This document shows, in pieces, positions 7,136 to 63,345 of a stretch of DNA of 64,000 bases. Each line of letters starts with the position of its first letter. Positions within the stretch are counted from its first letter, which is position 1. A program made the translations under genes and the position numbers. This DNA comes from a virus. Where the stretch lies: IMG/VR virus record IMGVR_UViG_3300036770_008702, positions 19,952-83,951 of that record, one strand, 5' to 3'. A model generated the notes under the pieces. That model searched no databases. It saw only the letters and a list, made by a program, of their open reading frames with translations, and was not told the origin of the DNA.

Positions 7136-10100
7136 CCGGTATCGCGGAAAGTCATGTGGAGGAAGCGGCGCTGCATTGGCTCGCCGAGCTTGGCTACGCC
7201 GTCGCCGCTGGCCCCGACATCGGCCCGGACGGCGCGCGGCCCGAGCGAGCTACCCATGGCGACACTCTCCTCCTCGGTCGCCTGCGCGCCGCCATCGCCC
7301 GGCTGAACCCCGGACTTGCGCCGGAGGTCCGGGCGGCCGTGCTGGCGAAGGTCACCCAAACGGAAACCCCGTCGCTGATCGAAGAGAACCGCCGCCTCCA
7401 TCGCTATCTGGTGGAAGGCGTGCCGGTGGAGGTGCGCCGGCCGGACGGCAGCATCGGGGGCGAACTCGCCCGCCTGATCGACCTCACCGACGTCGCGGCC
7501 AACGACTGGCTGGCGGTGAACCAGTTCACGGTCATCGAGAACAAGGCCAACCGTCGGCCCGATGTGGTGGTACTGGTCAACGGTTTGCCGCTCGGCGTGA
7601 TCGAGTTGAAGAACCCCGGCGAACAGAACGCCACCCTCGACGGTGCCTTCAACCAGTTGCAGACCTACAAGGCCCAGATCACCTCCCTTTTCCGCGCCAA
7701 CGTCGCCCTGGTGATCTCCGACGGCATCGCCGCCCGCATCGGCTCGCTCACCGCGGACCGAGAACGCTTCATGCCCTGGCGCACCATCACCGGCGACGAC
7801 CTGGCGCCCAAGAGCGCGCCGGAACTGGAGACCCTGCTGAAGGGCGTCTTCGACCGGCAACGCCTGCTGGACCTGATCCGCGACTTCCTCGTCTTCGGCG
7901 GCTCCGGCAGTGACACGGTGAAGATCCTGGCCGGCTACCACCAGTTCCACGCCGTGCGCCACGCCGTCGCCCGCACCCTCGCCGCCACCGCCCCGGGGGG
8001 AGACCGCAAGGTGGGGGTCATCTGGCACACCCAGGGCTCCGGCAAGAGCCTGCTGATGGCGTTCTACGCCGGCCAGGTCATCAAGCACCCAGAGATGCAA
8101 AACCCCACGGTCGTGGTGCTGACCGACCGCAACGACCTCGACGAGCAGCTCTTCGGCACCTTCTGCCTGTGCCAGGACCTGCTGCGCCAGTCCCCGCAGC
8201 AGGCTGAGGACCGCGACCACCTGCGCAAGCTGCTCGATCGCCCCTCCGGTGGCGTGATCTTCACCACCCTGCAGAAATTCTCGCCCGAGAGCGGCTCCAC
8301 CGACTACCCGGTGCTGACCGACCGCCGCAACGTGGTGGTGATCGCCGATGAGGCGCACCGCAGCCAATACGGCTTCCGCGCGAAGGTCGCCGCCAGGACG
8401 GGCGAGATTTCCTACGGCTTCGCCAAGTACCTCCGCGACGGGCTGCCCAACGCCTCCTTCATAGGCTTCACCGGCACGCCGATCGAGAAGGACGACGTGA
8501 ACACGCCGGCGGTGTTCGGCAACTACATCGACATCTACGACATCGCCCGCGCCGTGGAGGACGGGGCGACGGTTCCCATATACTACGAGAGCCGCCTGGC
8601 GAGGATCGAACTGGACGAGGACGAGAAGCCGAAGCTCGATGCCGAGATCGAGGACCTGACCGAGGACGAAGCCGAGACCGAGCAAGAACGCCTGAAGCGC
8701 AAATGGGCCAGCGTCGAGGCCCTGGTCGGCGCCGAGAAGCGCCTCGCCCTGGTGGCCGAGGACTTGGTACGCCATTTCGAGGCCCGCATCGCGGCGCTGG
8801 ACGGCAAGGCGATGGTGGTGTGCATGAGCCGCCGCATCTGCGTCGCCCTCTACGACGAAATCATCCGGCTCCGGCCCGCATGGCACAGCGACGATGACGA
8901 TGCGGGCATGGTGAAGGTCGTGATGACCGGAGCGGCTTCCGACCCGCCCTCCTGGCAACCGCATATTGGCAAGCGGCCGAAAGCCCGCCGTGAGGCATTG
9001 GCCAAGCGAGCCAAGAAGGCCTCCGATCCGCTTAAGCTCGTCATCGTCCGCGACATGTGGCTGACGGGTTTCGACGCCCCGAGCATGCATACGATGTATG
9101 TGGACAAGCCGATGAAGGGCCACGGCCTGATGCAGGCCATCGCCCGCGTGAACCGGGTGTTCAAGGACAAGCCGGCCGGCCTGGTGGTGGACTACATCGG
9201 CGTTGCGCAGAACCTGAAGAGCGCCCTGGGGCAGTATTCCGGCGGCGACCGCGACCAGACGGGCATCGATGAGGCCGAAGCGATCCGTGTCCTGGAGGAG
9301 CACTACGAGATCGTCCACGCCATGTTCCGCCCCGACATGGCCGGCGGCTTTGATTACCGGCCCGCCTTGGAGCCTGGGGCGAGCGCACCCGTCCGCCTGG
9401 GCATCATGGCCGGCGCCATCGACTGGGTGCTGACCATGCAGCAGAATGACGCTGCCAAGGAGATCACCGAGGAGGGCAAGAAACGTGCCCATCGTCGGTA
9501 TGCCGACGCGGTGGCGGCCCTCTCCAAGGCATTCGCGCTCGCCTCCGCCAGTGACGAAGCGCGGGCCATCCGCGAGGAGGTGGGGTTCTTCCAGGCGATC
9601 CGGGTCGCCCTGGCCAAGAGCGCGCCTGGCGACGGCAAGAAGAGCACCGCGGAACGCGAGTTCGCCATCCAGCAGCTTGTCAGCCGCGCCGTGGTGTCCA
9701 CCGAGATCGTCGACATCATGAAGGCCGCGGGCCTGGACAGCCCGGACATCTCCATTCTCTCCGACGAATTCCTGGCTGAAGTGCGCGAGATGGAGAAGCG
9801 GAACCTCGCGATCGAGGCACTGAAAAAGCTGATTGCCGGCACCGTGCGTGCCCAGGCCCAGCGCAACGTGACCCAGGCCAAGGGCTTCACCGAACGCCTG
9901 GAAGCCGCGATCGCCCGCTACCACACCAACGCCATCACCACGGCCCAGGTGCTCGAAGAGCTCATCCAGATCGCCAAGGACATCCGCGCCGCCCGTGCCC
10001 GCGGTGAAGAAACCGGACTGTCGGACGAGGAGGTCGCCTTCTACGACGCCTTGGCCGAGAACGAGAGCGCCCGCCAGATGATGGGCGAGCCCGCTCTTCG

Positions 10101-19057: not shown

Positions 19058-20305
19058 CTAGGGCGCCGTCAGCGTCTGCAGCAGGGCGTTGGACAGCCGG
19101 CGAGGGAAGTACTGGAACGCCCGGCAGGTGGCGTTGGCGAGGGAGGATGCCGAGGGCTCCGACCAAGGGGCCGCGCCGATCGCGATGCGGGCCGGGGTCG
19201 CCGGCAGAGGGCAAAGGGCGTGGCTGCTGACGGTGCCACCATCCAGGCAGAACGCTGCGTCGAAGTTGGCCCAGGCCATCGCCATCCGGAAGGTCACCGC
19301 ATTGGCGAAGCTGAACGGCCGGGTCAGCGCCGCATAGCCAGCGCCACCCGCGCGCGTGTTCAGCACCAGCTGTCCGGTGGTGAAGCGTGACAGGTAGAAG
19401 GTGTCGTTGAAGGTCAGGCCGAAGCCGCCATAGACCAGGGCACTGCCACCGGTCTGCGCCGGCACGATCCGGTTCACATACTCGAAGATCATCGTTCCCT
19501 CGCTGGGGTTGAACCAGCGCGTGTCGACGTCGAGGTAGAGGTTGTCGGCCCCGCGGGTGACCGAGGCGGTCGTAGTCGGGATGTAGCTCGTCGGGTTGGT
19601 CAGCGTGGCCTCCGCCTCGAGCTGTGCACCCCAGGCATAGATGCTGTTGGTGCTGGCGGGCGGGGTGTTGTCGGCCGCGGCGGGTCCGATCGACGCGGCG
19701 ATGGCGGTCACCGTGGTGCTGGTGGCCTCGATCGCGCAGCGATACCAGCCGGCGCCGTGCGCCTCGATGGTCTTGGCGCTGTAGAGCAAGGTACCGGCGC
19801 CGGCGGTGTGGGTCCCGACCGCGCCGCTGACCAGGTTGAACCAGACCTGGATGGTATTGCTGCCGTCGCTCAGTTCCAGCACCGCGAAGCCACTGGCGGC
19901 GGCCTTGAGGAACACCACGAAGGCGATGCCGCGCCCGGCGGTGATGGTGACGGCCTGCGTCAGCTTGCCGCCGCTGGCGGCCGCGGTGAGGGTGTCCGCC
20001 GTCGTGGTGCCATCCGGGGCCATGGTGGCATTCGGCGTGACGGTGAGGTTCGCCGCGGACCAGGGCGCGGTGTCCAGTTCCTCGCTGCGCAACAGCAGGT
20101 TGGTGCGCTGGGGCTCGATCAGCAGCCCCTCGCAGACGCCCGTGACCGGGTGGTGCTGCCAACGCCCGGTGTTGGCCGGCACGGCCCGAATGAGGCCTGT
20201 GCGCCCGACATTGCGGGCGGCCCCGGTGCGGGTGAAGCGGGCGCGCGGGTCGATCAACCCGGGGGCCTTGTGGAACTGCCAGTTGATGGCGGGCTCGACG
20301 GACAT
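19058..20305 (-). CDS. Phage fibre/spike protein with carbohydrate-binding/LamG-like domains (putative receptor-binding protein)
   Basis: GLLIEPQRTNLLLRSEE, IYAWGAQLE, PTSYIPTT motifs typical of phage fibre proteins; beta-rich; distal tail position. Confidence 0.8.
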   Translation of the reverse strand: MSVEPAINWQFHKAPGLIDPRARFTRTGAARNVGRTGLIRAVPANTGRWQHHPVTGVCEGLLIEPQRTNLLLRSEELDTAPWSAANLTVTPNATMAPDGTTTADTLTAAASGGKLTQAVTITAGRGIAFVVFLKAAASGFAVLELSDGSNTIQVWFNLVSGAVGTHTAGAGTLLYSAKTIEAHGAGWYRCAIEATSTTVTAIAASIGPAAADNTPPASTNSIYAWGAQLEAEATLTNPTSYIPTTTASVTRGADNLYLDVDTRWFNPSEGTMIFEYVNRIVPAQTGGSALVYGGFGLTFNDTFYLSRFTTGQLVLNTRAGGAGYAALTRPFSFANAVTFRMAMAWANFDAAFCLDGGTVSSHALCPLPATPARIAIGAAPWSEPSASSLANATCRAFQYFPRRLSNALLQTLTAP

Positions 20306-55574: not shown

Positions 55575-55577
55575 GGC

Positions 55578-56504
55578 TCAGCCCTCCTGCGTCGTCGTGG
55601 GAGTGGGGGTGGGGGCGCCGGACGGTGTCGGGGTGTCGGGCGGCAGCGCGATCTGGAAATGCGCCGTGGGCGGCGCGGTGAGCGGGCGCCGGATCTTGGC
55701 CATCAGCCGGCCGAGATGGGCTTCCTCGATCGTCGCCAGGCGGCCGGACCGGTCCTTCGCCGGGACGCCCAGCGGGTTGAGCGTCGTGCAGATGAACGCG
55801 CGATACGGCATGTCGTCGGGGCCGCGCAGCTCGGCCAGCGTGATCAGTTCGTCGACCACGCCGGGCAATTCCAACCCGGTCTTGGTGCCTTCGACCTGGA
55901 GTGCGAAGTAGGGCCGATTGAAGTCATCGACCTTCTTGTCGAGAATTGCCGCGAGCCAAACGTTCTTGTTCGGCACGTGCTGCAAGTGCGTGATCCAGGA
56001 AATCATCTCCTGGCCGAGCAGACCGTAGGCGGCGCGGAGGTCCGGCTTGCCGCTGCGATCCGACTGCGCCTGCGGCTGACCCTTGGACCACTGCAGACAC
56101 AGCCTGGACGCGACAGTGACCGAGTCGACGAAAATCGTTTCGTATTTGGCCAGAACATGGGGATCGCCGAAGGCGGCACAGACGCGGGCGTAGTGCGTGC
56201 TGTCGTAGGGCTGGTCGGCGCGCATGGCGGGGTTGGGGCCGCCGATCCAGCAGGCGATGTCGCGCGCCAGTTCCCAGTCGCGGACCCGCACCTCGTCGCC
56301 CGGCCAGCCCTGGACGGCCAGTTCGCCGGCCTCCAGGTTCACGAACAGCGTCGTGGCCGGGTCGAGCGACCACAGCTGCGAGGTCTTGCCGATGCCCGAG
56401 GCGCCGGCGAGCACGCCCTTGATGCCGCGCCGCTCGGCCATGCGCTCGTCGGCGCTGATGATCCGGAAGCCGCTCGCCGGCGCCGGGGGGAACGGGGCGC
56501 TCAC
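55578..56504 (-). CDS. AAA_24 / Sak4-like ATPase
   Basis: GASGIGKTS Walker A, IFVDSVT, PAKDRSGRL. Confidence 0.88.
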   Translation of the reverse strand: MSAPFPPAPASGFRIISADERMAERRGIKGVLAGASGIGKTSQLWSLDPATTLFVNLEAGELAVQGWPGDEVRVRDWELARDIACWIGGPNPAMRADQPYDSTHYARVCAAFGDPHVLAKYETIFVDSVTVASRLCLQWSKGQPQAQSDRSGKPDLRAAYGLLGQEMISWITHLQHVPNKNVWLAAILDKKVDDFNRPYFALQVEGTKTGLELPGVVDELITLAELRGPDDMPYRAFICTTLNPLGVPAKDRSGRLATIEEAHLGRLMAKIRRPLTAPPTAHFQIALPPDTPTPSGAPTPTPTTTQEG

Positions 56505-56935
56505 TTCAGCCCCCGCACGGTCTGCACCGCGGCGTCCGCCGCATTGGCCGAGCCCACGGCGCCTGCCTCGCGCGCCAGATCGTGCAGGCGCTGGAGGTCA
56601 TCGACCACGCGCAGGATGGCGCGGGCGCTGCGGTTCATCTGGCTGGCAGCGAAAGCGATATCGTCGACCGACGCCTCAGCCACACGCTTGGTGACCACCG
56701 TGTTGGGGTTGCCCGCCACGGGCACCGTGATGGTCTCGGGCAAGTTCTTGAGCCAATGGGTCTCGCGCAAGGCCTCGATGGCGGACTTGGGCTGCTTCAC
56801 CGCGCCCGCCGTGGCGGCCGACGGCTTGGCGGGATCGGCGGCCAAGCCGGGCTTCGAGAAGGAAAAGAGGGCGACGAGGCCGGTGAGCAGCGCGAGCGCG
56901 CGGCGACCCGGCGGATGGTGGGGGGAGAGAGTCAT
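56501..56935 (-). CDS. Hypothetical phage protein
   Basis: MTLSPHH... after a GGAG RBS; EASVDDIAFA motif; stop overlaps the next start. Confidence 0.7.
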   Translation of the reverse strand: MTLSPHHPPGRRALALLTGLVALFSFSKPGLAADPAKPSAATAGAVKQPKSAIEALRETHWLKNLPETITVPVAGNPNTVVTKRVAEASVDDIAFAASQMNRSARAILRVVDDLQRLHDLAREAGAVGSANAADAAVQTVRGLK

Positions 56936-57078
56936 TGGGGGGAGCTCCGTTCTGTCGGTGCTCCGTTCGTCGAATGGGAGACTGCCGGGCCCCGACGCGG
57001 TGGAGCAGACCGTCCTGGTATTTCCGCGTCGCCGCGGTGTTGCATTTCCAGGAAGACCCGGCAGCGAACCGGGTGGGA

Positions 57079-57306
57079 TCAGGCGGCGCTCATCTCCTTG
57101 CGCTGCGCTTCCTCGAAGCTTTCGATATCGGAAAGGACGTAGGTCACGTGACCGCCGAGTTTGAAATACGGCGGCCCCTTTCCCTCGGAGCGCCACCGCT
57201 CCAGCGTGCGCACCGACACGTCCCAGCGCGTCGCCAGCTGGCGCTGGTTGATGTGCCGCACCGCAGTGCCGTCACACCGGCCGGCCAAGTAATGATGCTT
57301 GCTCAT
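57079..57306 (-). CDS. AlpA/Xis-like HTH DNA-binding protein
   Basis: INQRQLATRWDVSVRTLERWRSEGKGPPYFKLGGHVTY. Confidence 0.88.
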   Translation of the reverse strand: MSKHHYLAGRCDGTAVRHINQRQLATRWDVSVRTLERWRSEGKGPPYFKLGGHVTYVLSDIESFEEAQRKEMSAA

Positions 57307-57602
57307 GCCGGGCACCTACCGGCGCGGCTTCCGAAGTGTCGGGGTGCCGAGTTGTACCCCCTGAACCCTGCCGCTTCTCCATGAGATGAGATGATCGAGG
57401 ATGTGCATCGCGCTGCCTCGCGGACGTCGGGCGCGGGCTCGCTGACGTAGATCGCCAGCAGCGGCGTCCCATCGGCATGGGTGCCAGCGTCCTCGATTTG
57501 GTAGTTGCAGTTGGGCTCGCAGACCTCGGTCAGTTCCCAGCGGCGATAGAGTCCTGGAAGACGCCTGAAATCCGCGAGCGACAGATCGGCAGTGCGGTTC
57601 AT
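57303..57602 (-). CDS. Hypothetical protein
   Basis: FRRLPGLYRRWEL...GTPLLAIY; first gene after the bipartite motif. Confidence 0.6.
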   Translation of the reverse strand: MNRTADLSLADFRRLPGLYRRWELTEVCEPNCNYQIEDAGTHADGTPLLAIYVSEPAPDVREAARCTSSIISSHGEAAGFRGYNSAPRHFGSRAGRCPA

Positions 57603-57651
57603 GCTTGCCTGCTTTCGGCTGAAGGGACGGCGCTCGGAGCGCTCGAACGGG

Positions 57652-57683
57652 AAAAGCCATCGGCGAAGGCAGATCGGGACATC
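57652..57683 (-). promoter_or_regulatory. Bipartite motif GATGTCCCG-N15-TGGCTTTT, candidate phage-sigma promoter for the replication operon
   Basis: Identical boxes and spacing to 61202-61233; 50 nt upstream of ATG 57602. Confidence 0.65.
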
Positions 57684-57686
57684 GGC

Positions 57687-58409
57687 TCAGGGGATTTCCG
57701 CCAGGGCGTCGCGCAGCTTGGGCATCGCGCGCTGGTAGCGCTTGCGGGCGGCGGCCTCGGTCAGGCCCATCTCGACGGCGACCTCGGCCTGCGAGAAACC
57801 CTCGATCGCCACGCGGATCACCAGAAGGGCGTCCGCGCCGATCAGCTTGTGCAGGTCGTCCTGCAGGTGCGCATCTTCCGCCCCGGGCTGTCGCCCCGCC
57901 TGATCGGCGGGCACGTCGTTGATCTCGATATCGCTGGCCAGATCTTCGCAGGCTGCTTCGCGCTTGCGCGCGCGAATCATGTCGCGCTCGACGTTCCGCA
58001 GGACTGAGGCTGCGATCCAGTTGACGCGCCCCAGGTCGAGGCCGCGGACTGCCTCAGTGGTGCGCGCCAGCACGTCGGACGTCATCTCGTTGGCTGTGCC
58101 GATCCTGCGCCAGATCGAGCGGCGCCGGATGGCGTCGAGGCCGGGCCAGAGCGCCAGCAACAGCAGCGTCAGGGCGCAGTCGGACGCGGGTCCGTCGCCC
58201 TGCGCAGCTACGACCAGCGCGGAAAGAATCACGTTCTTCCGGGCCGGATCGCCGGTCGTACGATGCAGCCCGTCAAGAAGGGCCGCTGGATCGCGGAACG
58301 GCGCGAGGGCGGCCTGCGTGCGCCGGACGGCGTCGAAACTACGCTGGAAGTGAAGGCTCGTGGAGGAATGCATGAGGTGATCACGGATCTCGTGCCACGC
58401 GAAGGACAT
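57687..58409 (-). CDS. Prophage-encoded ECF-like sigma-70 factor
   Basis: Region 4 HTH EGFSQAEVAVEMGLTEAAARKRYQRA; region-2-like WIAASVLRNVERDMIR. Confidence 0.78.
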   Translation of the reverse strand: MSFAWHEIRDHLMHSSTSLHFQRSFDAVRRTQAALAPFRDPAALLDGLHRTTGDPARKNVILSALVVAAQGDGPASDCALTLLLLALWPGLDAIRRRSIWRRIGTANEMTSDVLARTTEAVRGLDLGRVNWIAASVLRNVERDMIRARKREAACEDLASDIEINDVPADQAGRQPGAEDAHLQDDLHKLIGADALLVIRVAIEGFSQAEVAVEMGLTEAAARKRYQRAMPKLRDALAEIP

Positions 58410-58438
58410 CGGACGCCTGCCTTGCGGCCAGGCGTCCG
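58410..58438 (-). promoter_or_regulatory. RBS-occluding hairpin immediately 5' of the sigma start codon
   Basis: mRNA CGGACGCCUG-GCC-GCAA-GG-CAGGCGUCCG-AUG: perfect 10-bp arms, GCAA loop. Confidence 0.7.
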
Positions 58439-58505
58439 GCGCCTTGTCGTGGCCAGGTCAGGACGTCGCGCGTCTCTGCGATTTCAGGGGGGGTAACTGT
58501 GCGCG

Positions 58506-58751
58506 TCAGCGCGCGGGCGCGGTCGCGTTGTTCAGCGTGCTGCAGCCACGGCAGGTGGCCTGAACCGGAAAGCCCACGAGATACTCGTGCCCCCGCGCGA
58601 AGCGCAGGTGCATCCGGCCGTCCCGGCAGACTCCGAGCAGCTTGTCACAGCGCGTGCAGCGCCATTCCGCGTTCAGGGTGGTGGGCTTGGTCGTCGCGGC
58701 GCCGGTCCAGCTCGTCGGGGCTGCCTGGCGCGAGGGGAAGGGAGTCGGCAT
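58506..58751 (-). CDS. Com-like zinc-finger protein
   Basis: WRCTRCDKLLG...ATCRGCSTLN matches the Mu Com pattern RCxxCxKLL...CxRCxxxN; GAGGAG RBS. Confidence 0.72.
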   Translation of the reverse strand: MPTPFPSRQAAPTSWTGAATTKPTTLNAEWRCTRCDKLLGVCRDGRMHLRFARGHEYLVGFPVQATCRGCSTLNNATAPAR

Positions 58752-58829
58752 GGGAGTGCTCCTCTATGTGGAGCCCCTCCAGTAATCAGCGGTTCGTTAG
58801 ACCGTCTCCCGCTTCATTTTAGACGGCCT

Positions 58830-61079
58830 TTAGACGACGGCCTCGACGGGCGCTTCGACCGGTTCGGGTGCTGGCCGCGGCGCGACGATCAGGCGCCAGT
58901 AGCCGCGCTTCGCCCCCTTTGCGATGTAGAAATCTATGATGTCCTGCCACATCTCCTTGCGGAACGCCTGCTGGGGACTCTTTGCCGAGAAACCCTTCAT
59001 CAGGTCGCCGACGTAAACGTCCGCGGTGCCCGTTGCATACGCGGCGACAAGGCGTTCGAAGATCGTAAGTTGTTCATTTCCAGCGAGGTACAGCGGCTCA
59101 CGGCCGGGAATGTAGAGCGTCCCGGATTGCGTGCTGCTGCGGTCGACACGCGGCGACCCGCCGCCGTGCGCGAGCGAGTGGCTGCTCCGATATGCGAGTT
59201 CCAGGCCGTCGCGGGAGAAGAGCATCTCGTCGTCAGCGGGTGATAGATGTAACAGAAGCGGTACGACCACGTTCGACCCGAGATGCGATGGCATTTCTTC
59301 GCTTGCCGCCAGGATGATCCCGACGCCAGATGTATTCCGGGCTCGCAACATCAAATCCAGCCGCTGTGCAGTTCTTGGGTCATTGATGCGCCTGGCAAAA
59401 TAGACGAGAACGTCGGCATCATCGATCCGCATTGCACCCAGAAGATTCAGGTCCCGGTCGAGGATCTGGGCTGCCCGCTTGTTCAAGATCGGTTTCATCA
59501 GCCGCATGAGCGTCTCTTGAAGCCACTGGCCGTTGATGGCAAACATCTTGATATCCGATACAGGTCGCCTGCCTGCGTCCTGGCCGAACGGCCCCTCCGT
59601 GCGGACCATGCCTGCTGTCGCCGAGGGCTTGATGGTGCCTTCCCCGTCGATGTCGTCGTCCTCGATGAGGACCACATCCTGCCGATCACGGCGCTCGAGC
59701 AGCCCGCCTTCGATAAGACGGCTGGCGTCGAGCCCCAGTTCCAGAAGATACGCGCCGCTGACCTCGTCCTCGACCCGGTCGTAGAGTTGAACTAGCTGGG
59801 GGAATATCGCGCGCAGGTCGTCGGGTGCGATCTGCCGGAATGCGCTGAGAATCCCCCATTCCTTCAGGAGCGCAAAGCCAAGGCTGCGCTCTTCCGGATC
59901 CATCTTACTCTGTAGATTGCAGCTCTTCGTGCCGGCGATCGTGATGTTGATCGTCCGCTCCTTCTCGTCGCCGACGCGATTGTAGGCGACCGCGATCCCG
60001 ATCCGGCTGAACGCCTCGGCGCGCCGAAAGATGTTTCCGGCCCCAAGATACTGGTCCGCCACTTCCTCGATATCGTCGTCAACGGTGACCTTCAGCTGCA
60101 GCTTACGGCGCCAAGTGCCTAGCCGAACCTCGGCTTCCAGAACGCGCGCAAACGCGAGCTGGTAGCCCTCGATCTCGGGAGGCTTCAGAAGGAGCGAAGT
60201 ACGGAACCGGGATAGGTTGTAACGCTTCCAGGTCAATGGCTTCTGAGAGATGTCGTGCCCGAGGGCGATTTCGGCGAACGCGTCGCTGACCGTCTGGCGG
60301 ACCACCGGGCTGTCGGCGCAGACCTCGATCTGGCGCAGCGATGGCGTGTAAATCAGCGTCGCCTCGTTCGGCGGGCGATAGTAGATGGTGTCCCTGCGTC
60401 CGTCATGCCGGTGGTCGTGGACGCTCGATAGCGGCCCGCCATGCCGGACGATTAGCATGATCGATGCAGGGTGCGAGTCGGTGGCCGGCAGATTGAGAGC
60501 CTTCACCTCGCATGAAATCTCCGGTTTCAGCTCAAGCATGTCCTTGATCTTTGTGGCCAGCGCCGCCTCGTCGATTGCCGCAGCATCGAGCGCCATGTGG
60601 TTCTCGAGTTCGACCTCGAAGGCGTCATAGAGCTTGCCATGGTCACGGAACTGCCGGGCGAAATGGAAGCTCTCTGCATCCGCGAAAGTCTTGTACGCGT
60701 TCAAGTAGACCCATATGCTTCTGCATAGCTGATCGGGCTGGCGCTCGAATTGTTCCGATTGGCCGCCATCGAGCCGCTGCTCGACGATCGTCGTAAGGGA
60801 GGTGACGCCTTTGCCGTCCGCGAGAGACCGGATCCTTCGTGCTCGCTGCTCTGCTGGCTGCAGTTCGTCCTGATCGAATTCTGACAGCGTCTGGATGAGT
60901 CTTTGCCTGAACATCTCGACCGCTTTTTTGTCAGAGTGATCAGGCAGGTCCTCGGGCAACTTGAAGTCTGGCTCGTTATCGCCCTCCCGAAAAGCAAGGG
61001 CTGCACGGGCGAGGTCGACGCGCGCATCTTCGATCAGCCTCAGGACATGGGGACCGATCCGATTTGCTTTACGCGCCAT
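58830..61079 (-). CDS. Large hypothetical protein (749 aa) with possible C-terminal winged-helix domain
   Basis: Long ORF; C-terminus EQLTIFERLV...GDLMKGF...GAKRGYWRL resembles an OmpR-type wHTH. Confidence 0.85.
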   Translation of the reverse strand: MARKANRIGPHVLRLIEDARVDLARAALAFREGDNEPDFKLPEDLPDHSDKKAVEMFRQRLIQTLSEFDQDELQPAEQRARRIRSLADGKGVTSLTTIVEQRLDGGQSEQFERQPDQLCRSIWVYLNAYKTFADAESFHFARQFRDHGKLYDAFEVELENHMALDAAAIDEAALATKIKDMLELKPEISCEVKALNLPATDSHPASIMLIVRHGGPLSSVHDHRHDGRRDTIYYRPPNEATLIYTPSLRQIEVCADSPVVRQTVSDAFAEIALGHDISQKPLTWKRYNLSRFRTSLLLKPPEIEGYQLAFARVLEAEVRLGTWRRKLQLKVTVDDDIEEVADQYLGAGNIFRRAEAFSRIGIAVAYNRVGDEKERTINITIAGTKSCNLQSKMDPEERSLGFALLKEWGILSAFRQIAPDDLRAIFPQLVQLYDRVEDEVSGAYLLELGLDASRLIEGGLLERRDRQDVVLIEDDDIDGEGTIKPSATAGMVRTEGPFGQDAGRRPVSDIKMFAINGQWLQETLMRLMKPILNKRAAQILDRDLNLLGAMRIDDADVLVYFARRINDPRTAQRLDLMLRARNTSGVGIILAASEEMPSHLGSNVVVPLLLHLSPADDEMLFSRDGLELAYRSSHSLAHGGGSPRVDRSSTQSGTLYIPGREPLYLAGNEQLTIFERLVAAYATGTADVYVGDLMKGFSAKSPQQAFRKEMWQDIIDFYIAKGAKRGYWRLIVAPRPAPEPVEAPVEAVV

Positions 61080-61201
61080 TGATTCACCGCAACGAACAAC
61101 TGATCAGGATTGATTCAACCCAAAATAATCATGGACGATGGGATTCGGTGCAAGATCGGATTTTCTGCCCTCGTTCGCAATTTAGAGAGTCGCCGTCGTT
61201 G

Positions 61202-61233
61202 GATGTCCCGTCTCAAGCCCCTGGGTGGCTTTT
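61202..61233 (+). promoter_or_regulatory. Bipartite motif GATGTCCCG-N15-TGGCTTTT, candidate phage-sigma promoter for the recombinase operon
   Basis: Identical boxes and spacing to 57652-57683; 38 nt upstream of ATG 61272. Confidence 0.65.
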
Positions 61234-61271
61234 GATCGGTAACGACATCACCGAACACGCCCAACCGAGCC

Positions 61272-61490
61272 ATGAATCGCTCCAGCCCGCCCACCACCGG
61301 TCCCCATCTCCCACCGCACCTCCGCGAGGTCTGCGCCATCCTGGCCGCCGGCCTGCTGCGGCTGCGCAGCCGCAGCGCCGAGGAATGTGCCCGTGACGCC
61401 GCGGAGACCGGGGACCACGGAGAGTTTCGCCTACACTACGTGCCCCACCAGCGCGGTCATGCAACCCGGACCAACCGGAGAGACGCATGA
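61272..61490 (+). CDS. Small hypothetical protein preceding DUF2924
   Basis: LREVCAILAAGLLRLR; ATGA overlap with the next gene. Confidence 0.7.
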   Translation: MNRSSPPTTGPHLPPHLREVCAILAAGLLRLRSRSAEECARDAAETGDHGEFRLHYVPHQRGHATRTNRRDA

Positions 61491-61999
61491 CCAGACTGGC
61501 CAAACCCAAGGGCGCCGCGGCCACCGCCGCGCCCACCACGTTCCCCGCCATCCCGCCTGCCGACGTGCTGGGGCGCCTGGCGGCCCTGAAGACCGCGCCC
61601 GCCGCCGAGTTGCAGGCGCAGTGGCGAGAGCTCTTCGGCAAGGAGGCACCGCCGCACAACCGGACCTTCCTGCAGAGTCGACTGGCATACCGGGTGCAGG
61701 AGCTCGCTTACGGCGGGTTGAAGCCCGAGACGCTGCGGCGGCTCGAGGCGTTGGGCGAGCAGCTGGATGGCGGTAACCCGGTGCTGCGGCGGATCCGGGT
61801 CGACGACAAGCCGGTCACCGGCACGAAGCTGGTGCGGAACCACCAGGGGGTCGAGCACACCGTGACCGTGCTGGTCGACGGGTATTCCTGGGAAGGCCGC
61901 CCCTACAAGTCGCTGTCGGCCATCGCGCGCGCCATCACCGGCACGCGCTGGAATGGCTGGACGTTTTTCGGGATTGCGAACCGGCGGGGGTCAGCATGA
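61487..61999 (+). CDS. DUF2924-domain protein
   Basis: LAYRVQELAYGGL, YKSLSAIARAITGTRWNGWTFFG. Confidence 0.9.
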   Translation: MTRLAKPKGAAATAAPTTFPAIPPADVLGRLAALKTAPAAELQAQWRELFGKEAPPHNRTFLQSRLAYRVQELAYGGLKPETLRRLEALGEQLDGGNPVLRRIRVDDKPVTGTKLVRNHQGVEHTVTVLVDGYSWEGRPYKSLSAIARAITGTRWNGWTFFGIANRRGSA

Positions 62000-63345
62000 G
62001 CCGGAAATCTGGACTTCCCGCCGGTGGGAAGTCGACGGCAGCACCGCCTGTCCGTAAGGTCCGCTGCGCCGTCTACACCCGAAAATCCACAGACGAGGGG
62101 CTGGAGAAGGAATTCAACAGCCTGGACGCCCAGCGCGAGTCATGTGAGGCGTACATCGCCAGTCAGCGCACGGAGGGCTGGGTGCTGGTGCCCGACTACT
62201 ACGACGATGGCGGCATCTCCGGTGGCACGCTGGAGCGCCCGGCCCTGCAGCGCCTGCTGCGAGACATCGAGGCCGGCTTGGTCGACGTCGTGGCTGTCAA
62301 CAAGATTGACAGGCTGTCGCGTTCGCTGATGGATTTCGCCAAGCTGGTCGAGACCTTCGACGCCCACAACGTCACCTTCGTTTCGGTCACGCAGTCTTTC
62401 AACACGACGACCAGCATGGGCCGGTTGACGCTGAACATCCTGCTCAGCTTTGCTCAGTACGAACGCGAGATTATTGGCGAGCGGGTGCGCGACAAGATTG
62501 CGGCGTCCAAGGCGCGGGGCATGTGGATGGGTGGGCCAGTCCCGCTTGGCTACGACGTCCGCGACCGCAAGCTGGTAGTGAACGAGGTGGAAGCCGCGAC
62601 GGTGCGGCGCGTGTTCGATGCCTTCGCCACGATCGGTTCCGCCACGCAGCTAGTGCCGGCGCTGCGTGCCGAGGGCCTGCTGACCAAGATGGGGCGGCCG
62701 TTCGACAAGGGGGCGATCTACAAGACGCTGAGCCTTCGTACCTATCTCGGCGTCGTGACGCACCAGGGGAAGGTCTACCCTGGCGAGCACCAGGCGATCG
62801 TGCCGCAGGACCTGTGGGACCGGGCGCACGACATCATGCGGGAGAGCCCGCGCGTCCGCGCCAACGAGGCCCGCCGCCAGACACCGGCGCTGCTCCGCGG
62901 ATTGATCTTCGGGCCGGACGGCAGGGCGCTGTCGCCAACGCACACCCGTCGCAGGGGCAAGCTCTACACCTACTATGTGAGCCAGGCCGTGCTGAAGGGC
63001 ACCGACGACGGCGGTACGGTCCGCCGCATCTCGGCGGGCGAGATCGAGGCCGCAGTGATGGACCAGGTGCGGGCGCTGCTCTGCCAACCGGAGGTGGTGA
63101 TCGGCACGTGGCGCGCCGCGCAGGCCGAGGCGCCAGACCTGACCGCGGCTGAGACGCGCGTGGCACTGGAGCAGCTTGACCCGCTGTGGGACGAGTTGTT
63201 CCCCGCCGAGCAGGCGCGGATCGTGCGGAGCCTGGTCGAGCGTGTGGACATCAGCCCCGCGGGCGCCGACATTCGGTTACGGCTGGATGGCCTGGCCGGC
63301 TTGGTGCGCGATCTGCGGGCATCCCCCGTGCGCGAGGCCGCCTGA
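61996..63345 (+). CDS. Large serine recombinase (integrase)
   Basis: CAVYTRKS catalytic Ser, DDGGISG, RPALQRLL, KIDRLSRS, recombinase domain PLGYD. Confidence 0.95.
   Translation: MSRKSGLPAGGKSTAAPPVRKVRCAVYTRKSTDEGLEKEFNSLDAQRESCEAYIASQRTEGWVLVPDYYDDGGISGGTLERPALQRLLRDIEAGLVDVVAVNKIDRLSRSLMDFAKLVETFDAHNVTFVSVTQSFNTTTSMGRLTLNILLSFAQYEREIIGERVRDKIAASKARGMWMGGPVPLGYDVRDRKLVVNEVEAATVRRVFDAFATIGSATQLVPALRAEGLLTKMGRPFDKGAIYKTLSLRTYLGVVTHQGKVYPGEHQAIVPQDLWDRAHDIMRESPRVRANEARRQTPALLRGLIFGPDGRALSPTHTRRRGKLYTYYVSQAVLKGTDDGGTVRRISAGEIEAAVMDQVRALLCQPEVVIGTWRAAQAEAPDLTAAETRVALEQLDPLWDELFPAEQARIVRSLVERVDISPAGADIRLRLDGLAGLVRDLRASPVREAA

Follow-up and report, generated by a model that had tools for sequence, protein, structure and literature searches.

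A bipartite motif on both sides of a phage sigma-factor operon: candidate promoters of the phage's own sigma in a prophage family of Alphaproteobacteria

The DNA described here is a stretch of 64,000 nucleotides from the IMG/VR virus record IMGVR_UViG_3300036770_008702, a provirus (positions 19,952 to 83,951 of the record; hereafter the window). It carries two copies of a bipartite motif, GATGTCCCG-N15-TGGCTTTT, on either side of a group of three genes, the last of which encodes a sigma factor of 240 amino acids (240 aa). The two copies, termed sites A and C, are probably promoters that are read by the host core RNA polymerase (RNAP) with the prophage's own 240-aa sigma factor. An earlier note, made from the letters of the window, had proposed them as the cognate promoters of the adjacent phage sigma factor; the sigma fold of the protein, the co-conservation of motif and sigma gene, the exclusivity of the motif to the prophage module and the -35/-10 geometry of the boxes all support that proposal at the level of sequence and predicted structure.

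Both sites were located by a pattern search of the window. Site A (P_A) occupies 57652..57683 on the minus strand, with the proposed -35 box TGTCCC at 57681-57676 and the proposed -10 box GGCTTT at 57658-57653. Site C (P_C) occupies 61202..61233 on the plus strand, with the proposed -35 box TGTCCC at 61204-61209 and TGGCTTTT at 61226-61233. The sigma stop (57687) and the ATG at 57602 are separated by a gap of 84 nt, in which site A begins 3 nt after the stop codon and leaves 49 nt to the ATG. Site C is placed in a divergent gap of 192 nt (61080-61271), with 38 nt between its end and the ATG at 61272. The intergenic placement of both copies and their distance of 38-50 nt to the first ATG, as given by the earlier note, were therefore correct. 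Its reading of the letters was equally sound: the boxes of A and C agree at 17/17 bases, and the spacers, both 15 nt long, are unrelated (2/15 bases in agreement). The motif is asymmetric and bipartite, with two different boxes at an invariant 17-bp gap, and in each case it stands upstream of genes and faces them. GATGTCCCG bears no resemblance to TGGCTTTT or to its complement, and no palindrome or direct repeat of half-sites was found in them.

A search allowing up to three mismatches gave two matches in the 64-kb window (A and C) against 0.17 expected; at least two matches were obtained in 2 of 100 shuffles. No third copy is present in the window, where the best other matches to the core have two mismatches in 13 bases, lie in coding sequence and look like chance. 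The whole provirus record (83,951 bases; the window spans 19952-83951) likewise contains A and C only, and a control pattern gave no match in it. The statement that there is no third copy thus holds for the window and for the record; most relatives do have one. The A/C pair is not regarded as a chance match because it is conserved in relatives. A consensus scan found neither a sigma-70-type promoter nor an intrinsic terminator at A or C. The possibility that the motif is a terminator or an RNA structure was dropped, since besides the missing terminator the RNA fold at the motif was no better than that of shuffles (z from +1.6 to -0.5) and there was no Rfam match.

Loci bearing the sigma gene were gathered from IMG/VR, from one genome per species and from a 401-genome sample of the class, in which a family member was present in 7 of 401 genomes. 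The pattern TGTCCC-N17-GGC[CT]TT[TC] was found 532 times in 241 related loci (2.1 Mb), all copies falling into three positional classes and none elsewhere. Class A consists of 233 copies starting 3-5 nt past the sigma stop, to which four further A sites belong whose offset was mis-measured by the script; its place is filled in 233 of the 241 loci. Class B (135 copies) lies on the same strand 1335-1514 nt downstream, after the Sak4-like gene, and class C (160 copies, in 160 loci) is found 1954-4835 nt upstream on the other strand, facing an operon of a small open reading frame (ORF), a DUF2924 protein and a serine recombinase. The motif, on whose conservation in related elements the earlier note had made its proposal depend, is therefore kept across the 241 loci. 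In most relatives class B heads the next replication genes (135 loci in all, among them L010 with its copy at 8231-8262). At the corresponding position of the window, near 55575, the stop of the Sak4-like gene (55578) and the start of the gene after it (55574) overlap, which accounts for the missing site.

The motif is always oriented towards a start codon, which in the relatives lies at 49-51 nt from sites A and B and mostly at 34-38 nt from site C. Between TGTCCC and GGCTTT the spacing is 17 bp in every site that was read, and the 15-nt spacer varies by lineage, with 72 distinct sequences at A and 89 at C. Box conservation among sites selected with a regular expression arises partly by construction; the argument is carried by the unfiltered reads of the sequence past the sigma stop and by the whole-genome counts given below. 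In the unfiltered reads, boxes and spacing are kept throughout a range of sigma identities of 34-85%. The motif is also constant across subfamilies whose first gene past site A is not the same. The box variants of distant clades were limited to CGTCCC or TGTCAC as the first box and CGCGTTT, CGCTTTT or GGCGTTT as the second. In locus L164 site A carries CGCGTTT and site C the canonical GGCTTT, so that a variant and the canonical form occur in one phage. The variants represent tolerated degeneracy and not covariation.

A scan of the genome for the motif, proposed in the earlier note, was run on five whole host genomes (3.2-4.6 Mb each, about 20 Mb altogether). All 14 copies of the core were found at the A, B or C positions of the module, and the reversed control gave one match; in these genomes the core is thus confined to the module. 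The motif co-occurs with the sigma gene and is absent from the remainder of the five genomes. When IMG/VR was scanned with the motif alone, 117 stretches were obtained. Among these, 96 have a sigma homologue and the motif at A, B or C, and nine are recognisable A, B or C sites clipped by the ends of contigs or stretches. The other 12 have unrelated flanks and look like the chance matches that a 16-base pattern should produce in so large a collection.

The sigma gene lies at 57687..58409 on the minus strand. According to the structural model its product is a two-domain sigma factor, with a region-1.2-like N-terminus, sigma-2, a linker of about 20 residues and sigma-4, and with no sigma-3. The sole Pfam match is region 4 (Sigma70_r4_2; 26.7 bits versus a cut-off of 25.7). 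A profile of the sigma family searched against the PDB matched CnrH (E 4e-5) and, over positions 102-236, RpoE of Rhodobacter sphaeroides (2q1z). The AlphaFold2 model, built on the family alignment, has a predicted local distance difference test score (pLDDT) of 92. Foldseek ranks 1-50 against the PDB were all sigma-family chains, one of them (3t0y) being the sigma-like domain of PhyR. With VIA-align, residues 1-156 were superposed on region 1.2-2 of sigmaS with Z 9.7 (root-mean-square deviation, rmsd, 3.1 over 110 aa) and residues 177-238 on sigma-4 of SigD with Z 8.7 (rmsd 2.6 over 61 aa), values to be read knowing that Z under about 13 is common for helical folds. The N-terminal extension (residues 1-70) superposes on region 1.2 of sigmaS and sigmaA, which is normally absent in sigma factors of the extracytoplasmic function (ECF) type.

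In a search of 1.8 billion representatives, 639 clusters (50% identity, E <= 0.001) of this sigma of about 240 aa were found, alignable over the full length. The most conserved stretches are LALWPGLDA, IAATxxRNxERDxxR in a sigma-2 helix, and AARKRYQRAxxRL, which includes the sigma-4 recognition helix AARKRYQRA. Conserved segments in sigma-2 and sigma-4 fit with invariant boxes in the motif. Differing sigma copies, 76-80% identical to that of the window, were seen on contigs of 1-2 kb, several to an assembly, from Rhodobacter kunshanensis (L085, L092 and L123) and from Roseibium aestuarii (L097 and L127). Such multiple copies suggest several related prophages per genome, the conserved module breaking the assembly. 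A locus filed under a metagenome-assembled genome of 'Candidatus Woesearchaeota archaeon' (L110) carries a motif variant and a sigma 79% identical to that of the window, and is probably an alphaproteobacterial prophage contig that was binned wrongly.

The minus-strand genes between C and A encode, in order, a 749-aa protein, an 81-aa zinc ribbon and the 240-aa sigma factor. The 81-aa protein (58506..58751, minus strand), just upstream of the sigma gene, is a Com-like zinc ribbon of the form CxxC...CxxC. An ORF with this signature was found within 500 nt upstream of the sigma gene in 208 of 210 assessable loci. It is better conserved than the sigma: its core, WRCxRCDKLLGVCRDGRMHLRFARGHEY, is near-constant even where sigma identity is below 55%. 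The homologue in L039 scored 20.8 bits against Pfam Zn_ribbon_Com (PF10122), below the cut-off of 22.9, and the window's own protein had no Pfam match at E <= 0.01. Its constancy across the loci points to an obligate partner of the sigma factor. Com of phage Mu is an RNA-binding translational activator of mom, and by analogy the Com-like protein may control translation of the sigma; it may instead be a partner of the sigma at RNAP, like gp79 for gp36 in phage phiEco32. It is less likely that it reads the motif DNA itself.

In the proposed mechanism the -35 box TGTCCC would be read by sigma-4 and the -10 box (T)GGCTTT(T), 17 bp downstream, by sigma-2. The sigma gene would be the last of a three-gene operon (749-aa, Com-like, sigma) starting in the divergent gap. 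Once the sigma was made, P_A would be transcribed leftward into the replication genes and P_C rightward into the operon of the small ORF, the DUF2924 protein and the serine recombinase, so that replication and recombination genes would be turned on together. With no further copy downstream, P_A would probably head the whole 38-kb lytic array. The phage's own sigma is the likely reader because its gene is the only sigma gene that always accompanies the sites. We infer this role for the sigma, transcript starts near 57645 and 61240, and the upstream control considered below.

A number of results weigh against this assignment. Pfam Sigma70_r2 was undetected in the 240-aa protein, and the NCBIfam sigma70-ECF model (TIGR02937), aligned through profile positions 26-165 to residues 104-236, scored 33.0 bits, under its cut-off of 42.9. 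Because of this score the protein is termed ECF-like and is not counted as a member of a curated ECF group. The -35 box of ECF promoters typically contains an AAC core; that of the motif does not. The covariation of motif and sigma in homologous elements, which the earlier note had suggested examining, was found only in part: motif and sigma are conserved together, and there is no compensatory change, distant clades keeping the same boxes. The Com-like protein co-occurs with the motif as strictly as the sigma does. Finally, the RNA records matching the region come from biofilm and lake metatranscriptomes (6-14% of sampled words); they consist of short contigs from a mixture of relatives, mostly under 99% alike, in which 5' ends are not resolvable. 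RNA depth, which is low across the 749-aa gene and higher beyond 61208 to the right, was not used, as it is explained by the divergence of the 749-aa gene among relatives.

Other readings of the motif were weighed. It could be the site of another phage regulator, the best candidate being the Com-like protein, either as the sole activator or as a co-factor of the sigma, with initiation by a host sigma or with both proteins needed. Co-occurrence cannot separate this protein from the sigma, because the Com-like ORF is equally constant, and phiEco32 provides a precedent of a phage sigma that needs a phage co-factor (gp79 for gp36; PMC12276001). We nevertheless consider such a regulator rather unlikely to be the reader. 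Most operators of oligomeric regulators are palindromes or direct repeats, whereas the two boxes are unrelated and make up neither, and there is no sigma-70-type -10 element downstream for an activator to assist. The RNA-binding role of Mu Com fits control of sigma translation better than DNA binding. Other neighbours make poor candidates, for they vary while the motif is constant: the first gene of the operon encodes a 749-aa, a 724-aa or a 205-aa winged-helix (wHTH) protein, and the gene after A differs also.

The prophage sigma also has to be compared with host factors as the reader. The hosts span several alphaproteobacterial orders, and a conserved alternative sigma of the host could explain why the motif is invariant, the phage sigma then having other targets. 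A host regulon, however, would be expected to include chromosomal promoters, and in the five host genomes the core occurs only inside the module; nor was any other repeated motif that might serve the phage sigma seen in the window. To our knowledge the motif resembles no host consensus promoter (RpoD, RpoH, EcfG or RpoN). A host sigma as the reader is accordingly very improbable in our estimation. Least credible of all is that the pair mark the ends of an inserted element or are recombination sites at which the serine recombinase would, for example, invert or excise the module, although the copies are inverted relative to each other and the 3.5 kb between them, beside a serine recombinase gene, have a somewhat lower G+C content. 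The spacers, where the crossover core would be expected, are unrelated, and a third copy, directly oriented, is present in most relatives. A flipped module was found in 0 of 241 loci, the sequence after A never being that which follows C. The fixed distance to the next start codon is also not needed by recombination sites. Promoters of the prophage's own sigma factor thus remain the preferred explanation of A and C.

The genes on the strand of P_A form a long array. The first of them encodes a 99-aa protein (57303..57602, minus strand) and is followed in order by a 231-aa ORF, a Sak4-like gene, a helicase, a primase, two ParB-methyltransferases, the large terminase and the portal. Past the portal the array goes on with head and head-protease genes, the tape measure and further genes to about 19000. 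Site A is described as the head of a co-directional array of about 38 kb because the replication, packaging, head and tail genes are all on its strand. No further motif copy was seen among these genes (about 19000-57602, minus strand), and the array would be served either by one very long transcript from P_A or by late promoters of another kind. The 231-aa ORF (56501-57196, minus strand; phrog_36009) lies between the 99-aa and Sak4-like genes, where relatives such as L010 have about 300 nt; by this comparison it appears to be a lineage-specific insertion in the P_A operon. After P_C, the operon at 61272..63345 (plus strand) consists of a 72-aa ORF, the DUF2924 protein (61487-61999) and a large serine recombinase (61996-63345).

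G+C-rich hairpins or palindromes begin 8-12 nt past the -10 box of site A, in the window (57610-57645, minus strand) and in the leaders of relatives. Their sequence depends on the lineage (for example GGACGC..GCGTCC or AGACGC..GCGTCT). Folds of these leaders had a mean z of -1.06 over 17 leader types, six of which were below -1.5, and no signal was obtained at B or C. The hairpins could be 5'-terminal stem-loops or operators.

The divergent gap also holds candidate elements for control of the sigma operon itself. A putative sigma-70-type promoter of the host, TTGCAC-N17-GATTAT, was picked out from conserved alignment blocks at 61125..61153 on the minus strand, directed into the 749-aa/Com/sigma operon. 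It is a weak match to the consensus and was unreported by a simple promoter scan. On this sequence evidence the sigma operon probably starts from a host-type promoter in the divergent gap next to P_C. A LexA-type box, TTTC-N7-GTTC, lies at 61162..61176 (plus strand) and ends 25 nt upstream of site C. It has 7/8 bases of GTTC-N7-GTTC, the consensus of the alphaproteobacterial LexA (SOS) box (PMC8565304, PMC9578287). Of 121 distinct divergent regions, 77 have the exact form GAAC-N7-GAAC (GTTC-N7-GTTC on the other strand), the shuffles giving an expectation of 0.26. Its offset from site C is fixed at 24-28 nt (divergent regions including those of L064 and L164), and it stands just upstream of the presumed promoters, not over them. 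The predicted box suggests an SOS input to the sigma operon.

The first gene of the operon and the box vary together. The LexA-type box was found in 77 of 95 distinct loci of the 749-aa type, in 0 of 11 with the 724-aa protein and in 0 of 10 with the 205-aa winged-helix protein. The 749-aa protein of the window (58830..61079, minus strand) matches phrog_37634 only; it has no Pfam, NCBIfam or PADLOC match, and its label in the Atlas is 'hypothetical'. Its AlphaFold2 model has a pLDDT of 74, with weak Foldseek rows for CENP-N and the DNA-binding protein RdgC (E 1e-3 to 1e-2). At the same position L016 (1699-3873) encodes the 724-aa protein, 29% identical, and in L039 (3147-3764) the gene is replaced by that of the 205-aa winged-helix protein (HTH_36/DnaD_N). 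Since first-gene type and box change together, the input part of the module appears swappable, while Com-like protein, sigma and promoters are fixed.

No CI-type repressor was seen near the switch. A wider reading, which we put forward tentatively and regard as doubtful, is that the module works as an entire lysogeny switch that does without a repressor of this type. It would have a swappable input (here the host LexA box and the 749-aa gene) and a fixed Com-like/sigma output, with the Com-like protein as an obligate partner in translation or at RNAP, and the two or three private promoters would be the only entries to the lytic array and the recombinase operon. LexA control would make the phage SOS-inducible with no CI-type repressor, comparable with phage GIL01 (PMC4551915). 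If the reading is true, the lytic programme of a prophage family across several alphaproteobacterial orders would have one phage sigma as its master switch. The family is widespread, occurring in many alphaproteobacterial genera of several orders, including culture-collection strains. Among the loci read were those of Paracoccus yeei CCUG 46822 (L134), Rubellimicrobium thermophilum DSM 16684 (L108), Devosia enhydra ATCC 23634 (L115) and Defluviimonas denitrificans DSM 18921 (L101). Among isolated phages, neither the 4.3-kb region nor the sigma had a blastn or tblastn match in 50,697 GenBank phage records, and a literature search found no description of this sigma/motif prophage family.

Phage sigma factors with private promoters are a familiar strategy, known mainly from lytic phages, in which they serve middle or late genes. 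SaPh711_gp47, the sigma of Salmonella phage 7-11, has eight late promoters of the form GTAAtg-(16)-aCTA (PMC8948821). Both systems have a sigma-like phage protein acting, here presumably, on host core RNAP, and private bipartite promoters with a spacer of about 16-17 bp placed before phage operons. The likeness is drawn from these features of the systems and not from kinship of the sigma sequences, and the boxes themselves are unrelated. Phage 7-11 is a lytic podophage that uses its promoters for late genes; the present phage is temperate, and its two or three sites per genome head the replication and recombinase operons. The promoters of gp36 of phiEco32 lack a -35 box and consist of a single element, AATGTA, whose centre is at -11.5 (PMC12276001). 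There a distant phage sigma homologue redirects host RNAP with a small partner protein, gp79, in whose place the Com-like protein might stand here. The co-factor role modelled on gp79 is speculation by analogy; phiEco32 is lytic, its promoters are middle or late, and gp79 has no zinc ribbon.

The group 4 (ECF) sigma factors, represented by CnrH (4cxf), R. sphaeroides RpoE (2q1z) and the SigL, SigH and SigE complexes of Mycobacterium tuberculosis, share with the present protein the combination of sigma-2 and sigma-4, a short linker and the lack of sigma-3. In their promoters, too, a -35 box and a different -10 box are separated by about 16-17 bp, and these factors gave the best sequence-profile and Foldseek matches. 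They differ from the present sigma, which has about 70 extra N-terminal residues (region 1.2-like) and no evident anti-sigma gene, is phage-borne and would have a regulon of two or three promoters.

For the input side, the nearest parallel is GIL01, a temperate phage of Bacillus thuringiensis in which lysogeny is maintained by the host LexA; LexA binding and the helper gp7 have been demonstrated by experiment (PMC4551915, PMC6182141). Both phages would have a LexA box in the control region, and here too no CI-type repressor is seen near the switch; GIL01 has no phage sigma, and the box in the present family is a match in sequence. The order of the Com-like and sigma genes recalls Com-mom of Mu, with a small CxxC...CxxC zinc-ribbon gene directly upstream of its possible target. 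In Mu the target is a DNA-modification gene and here it would be a sigma gene, and the Zn_ribbon_Com match is below threshold (L039) or missing (window).

If A and C are promoters of the phage sigma, this factor would be a lysis/excision switch in a temperate control region and not a late-gene timer. The promoter is short, strict and absent from the host chromosomes, and the sigma/promoter pair could serve as an orthogonal expression switch for Alphaproteobacteria. The system is set apart from those of 7-11 and phiEco32 by its temperate setting, by having two or three sites, by its replication and recombinase targets, by its constant zinc-ribbon partner and by a possible SOS input.

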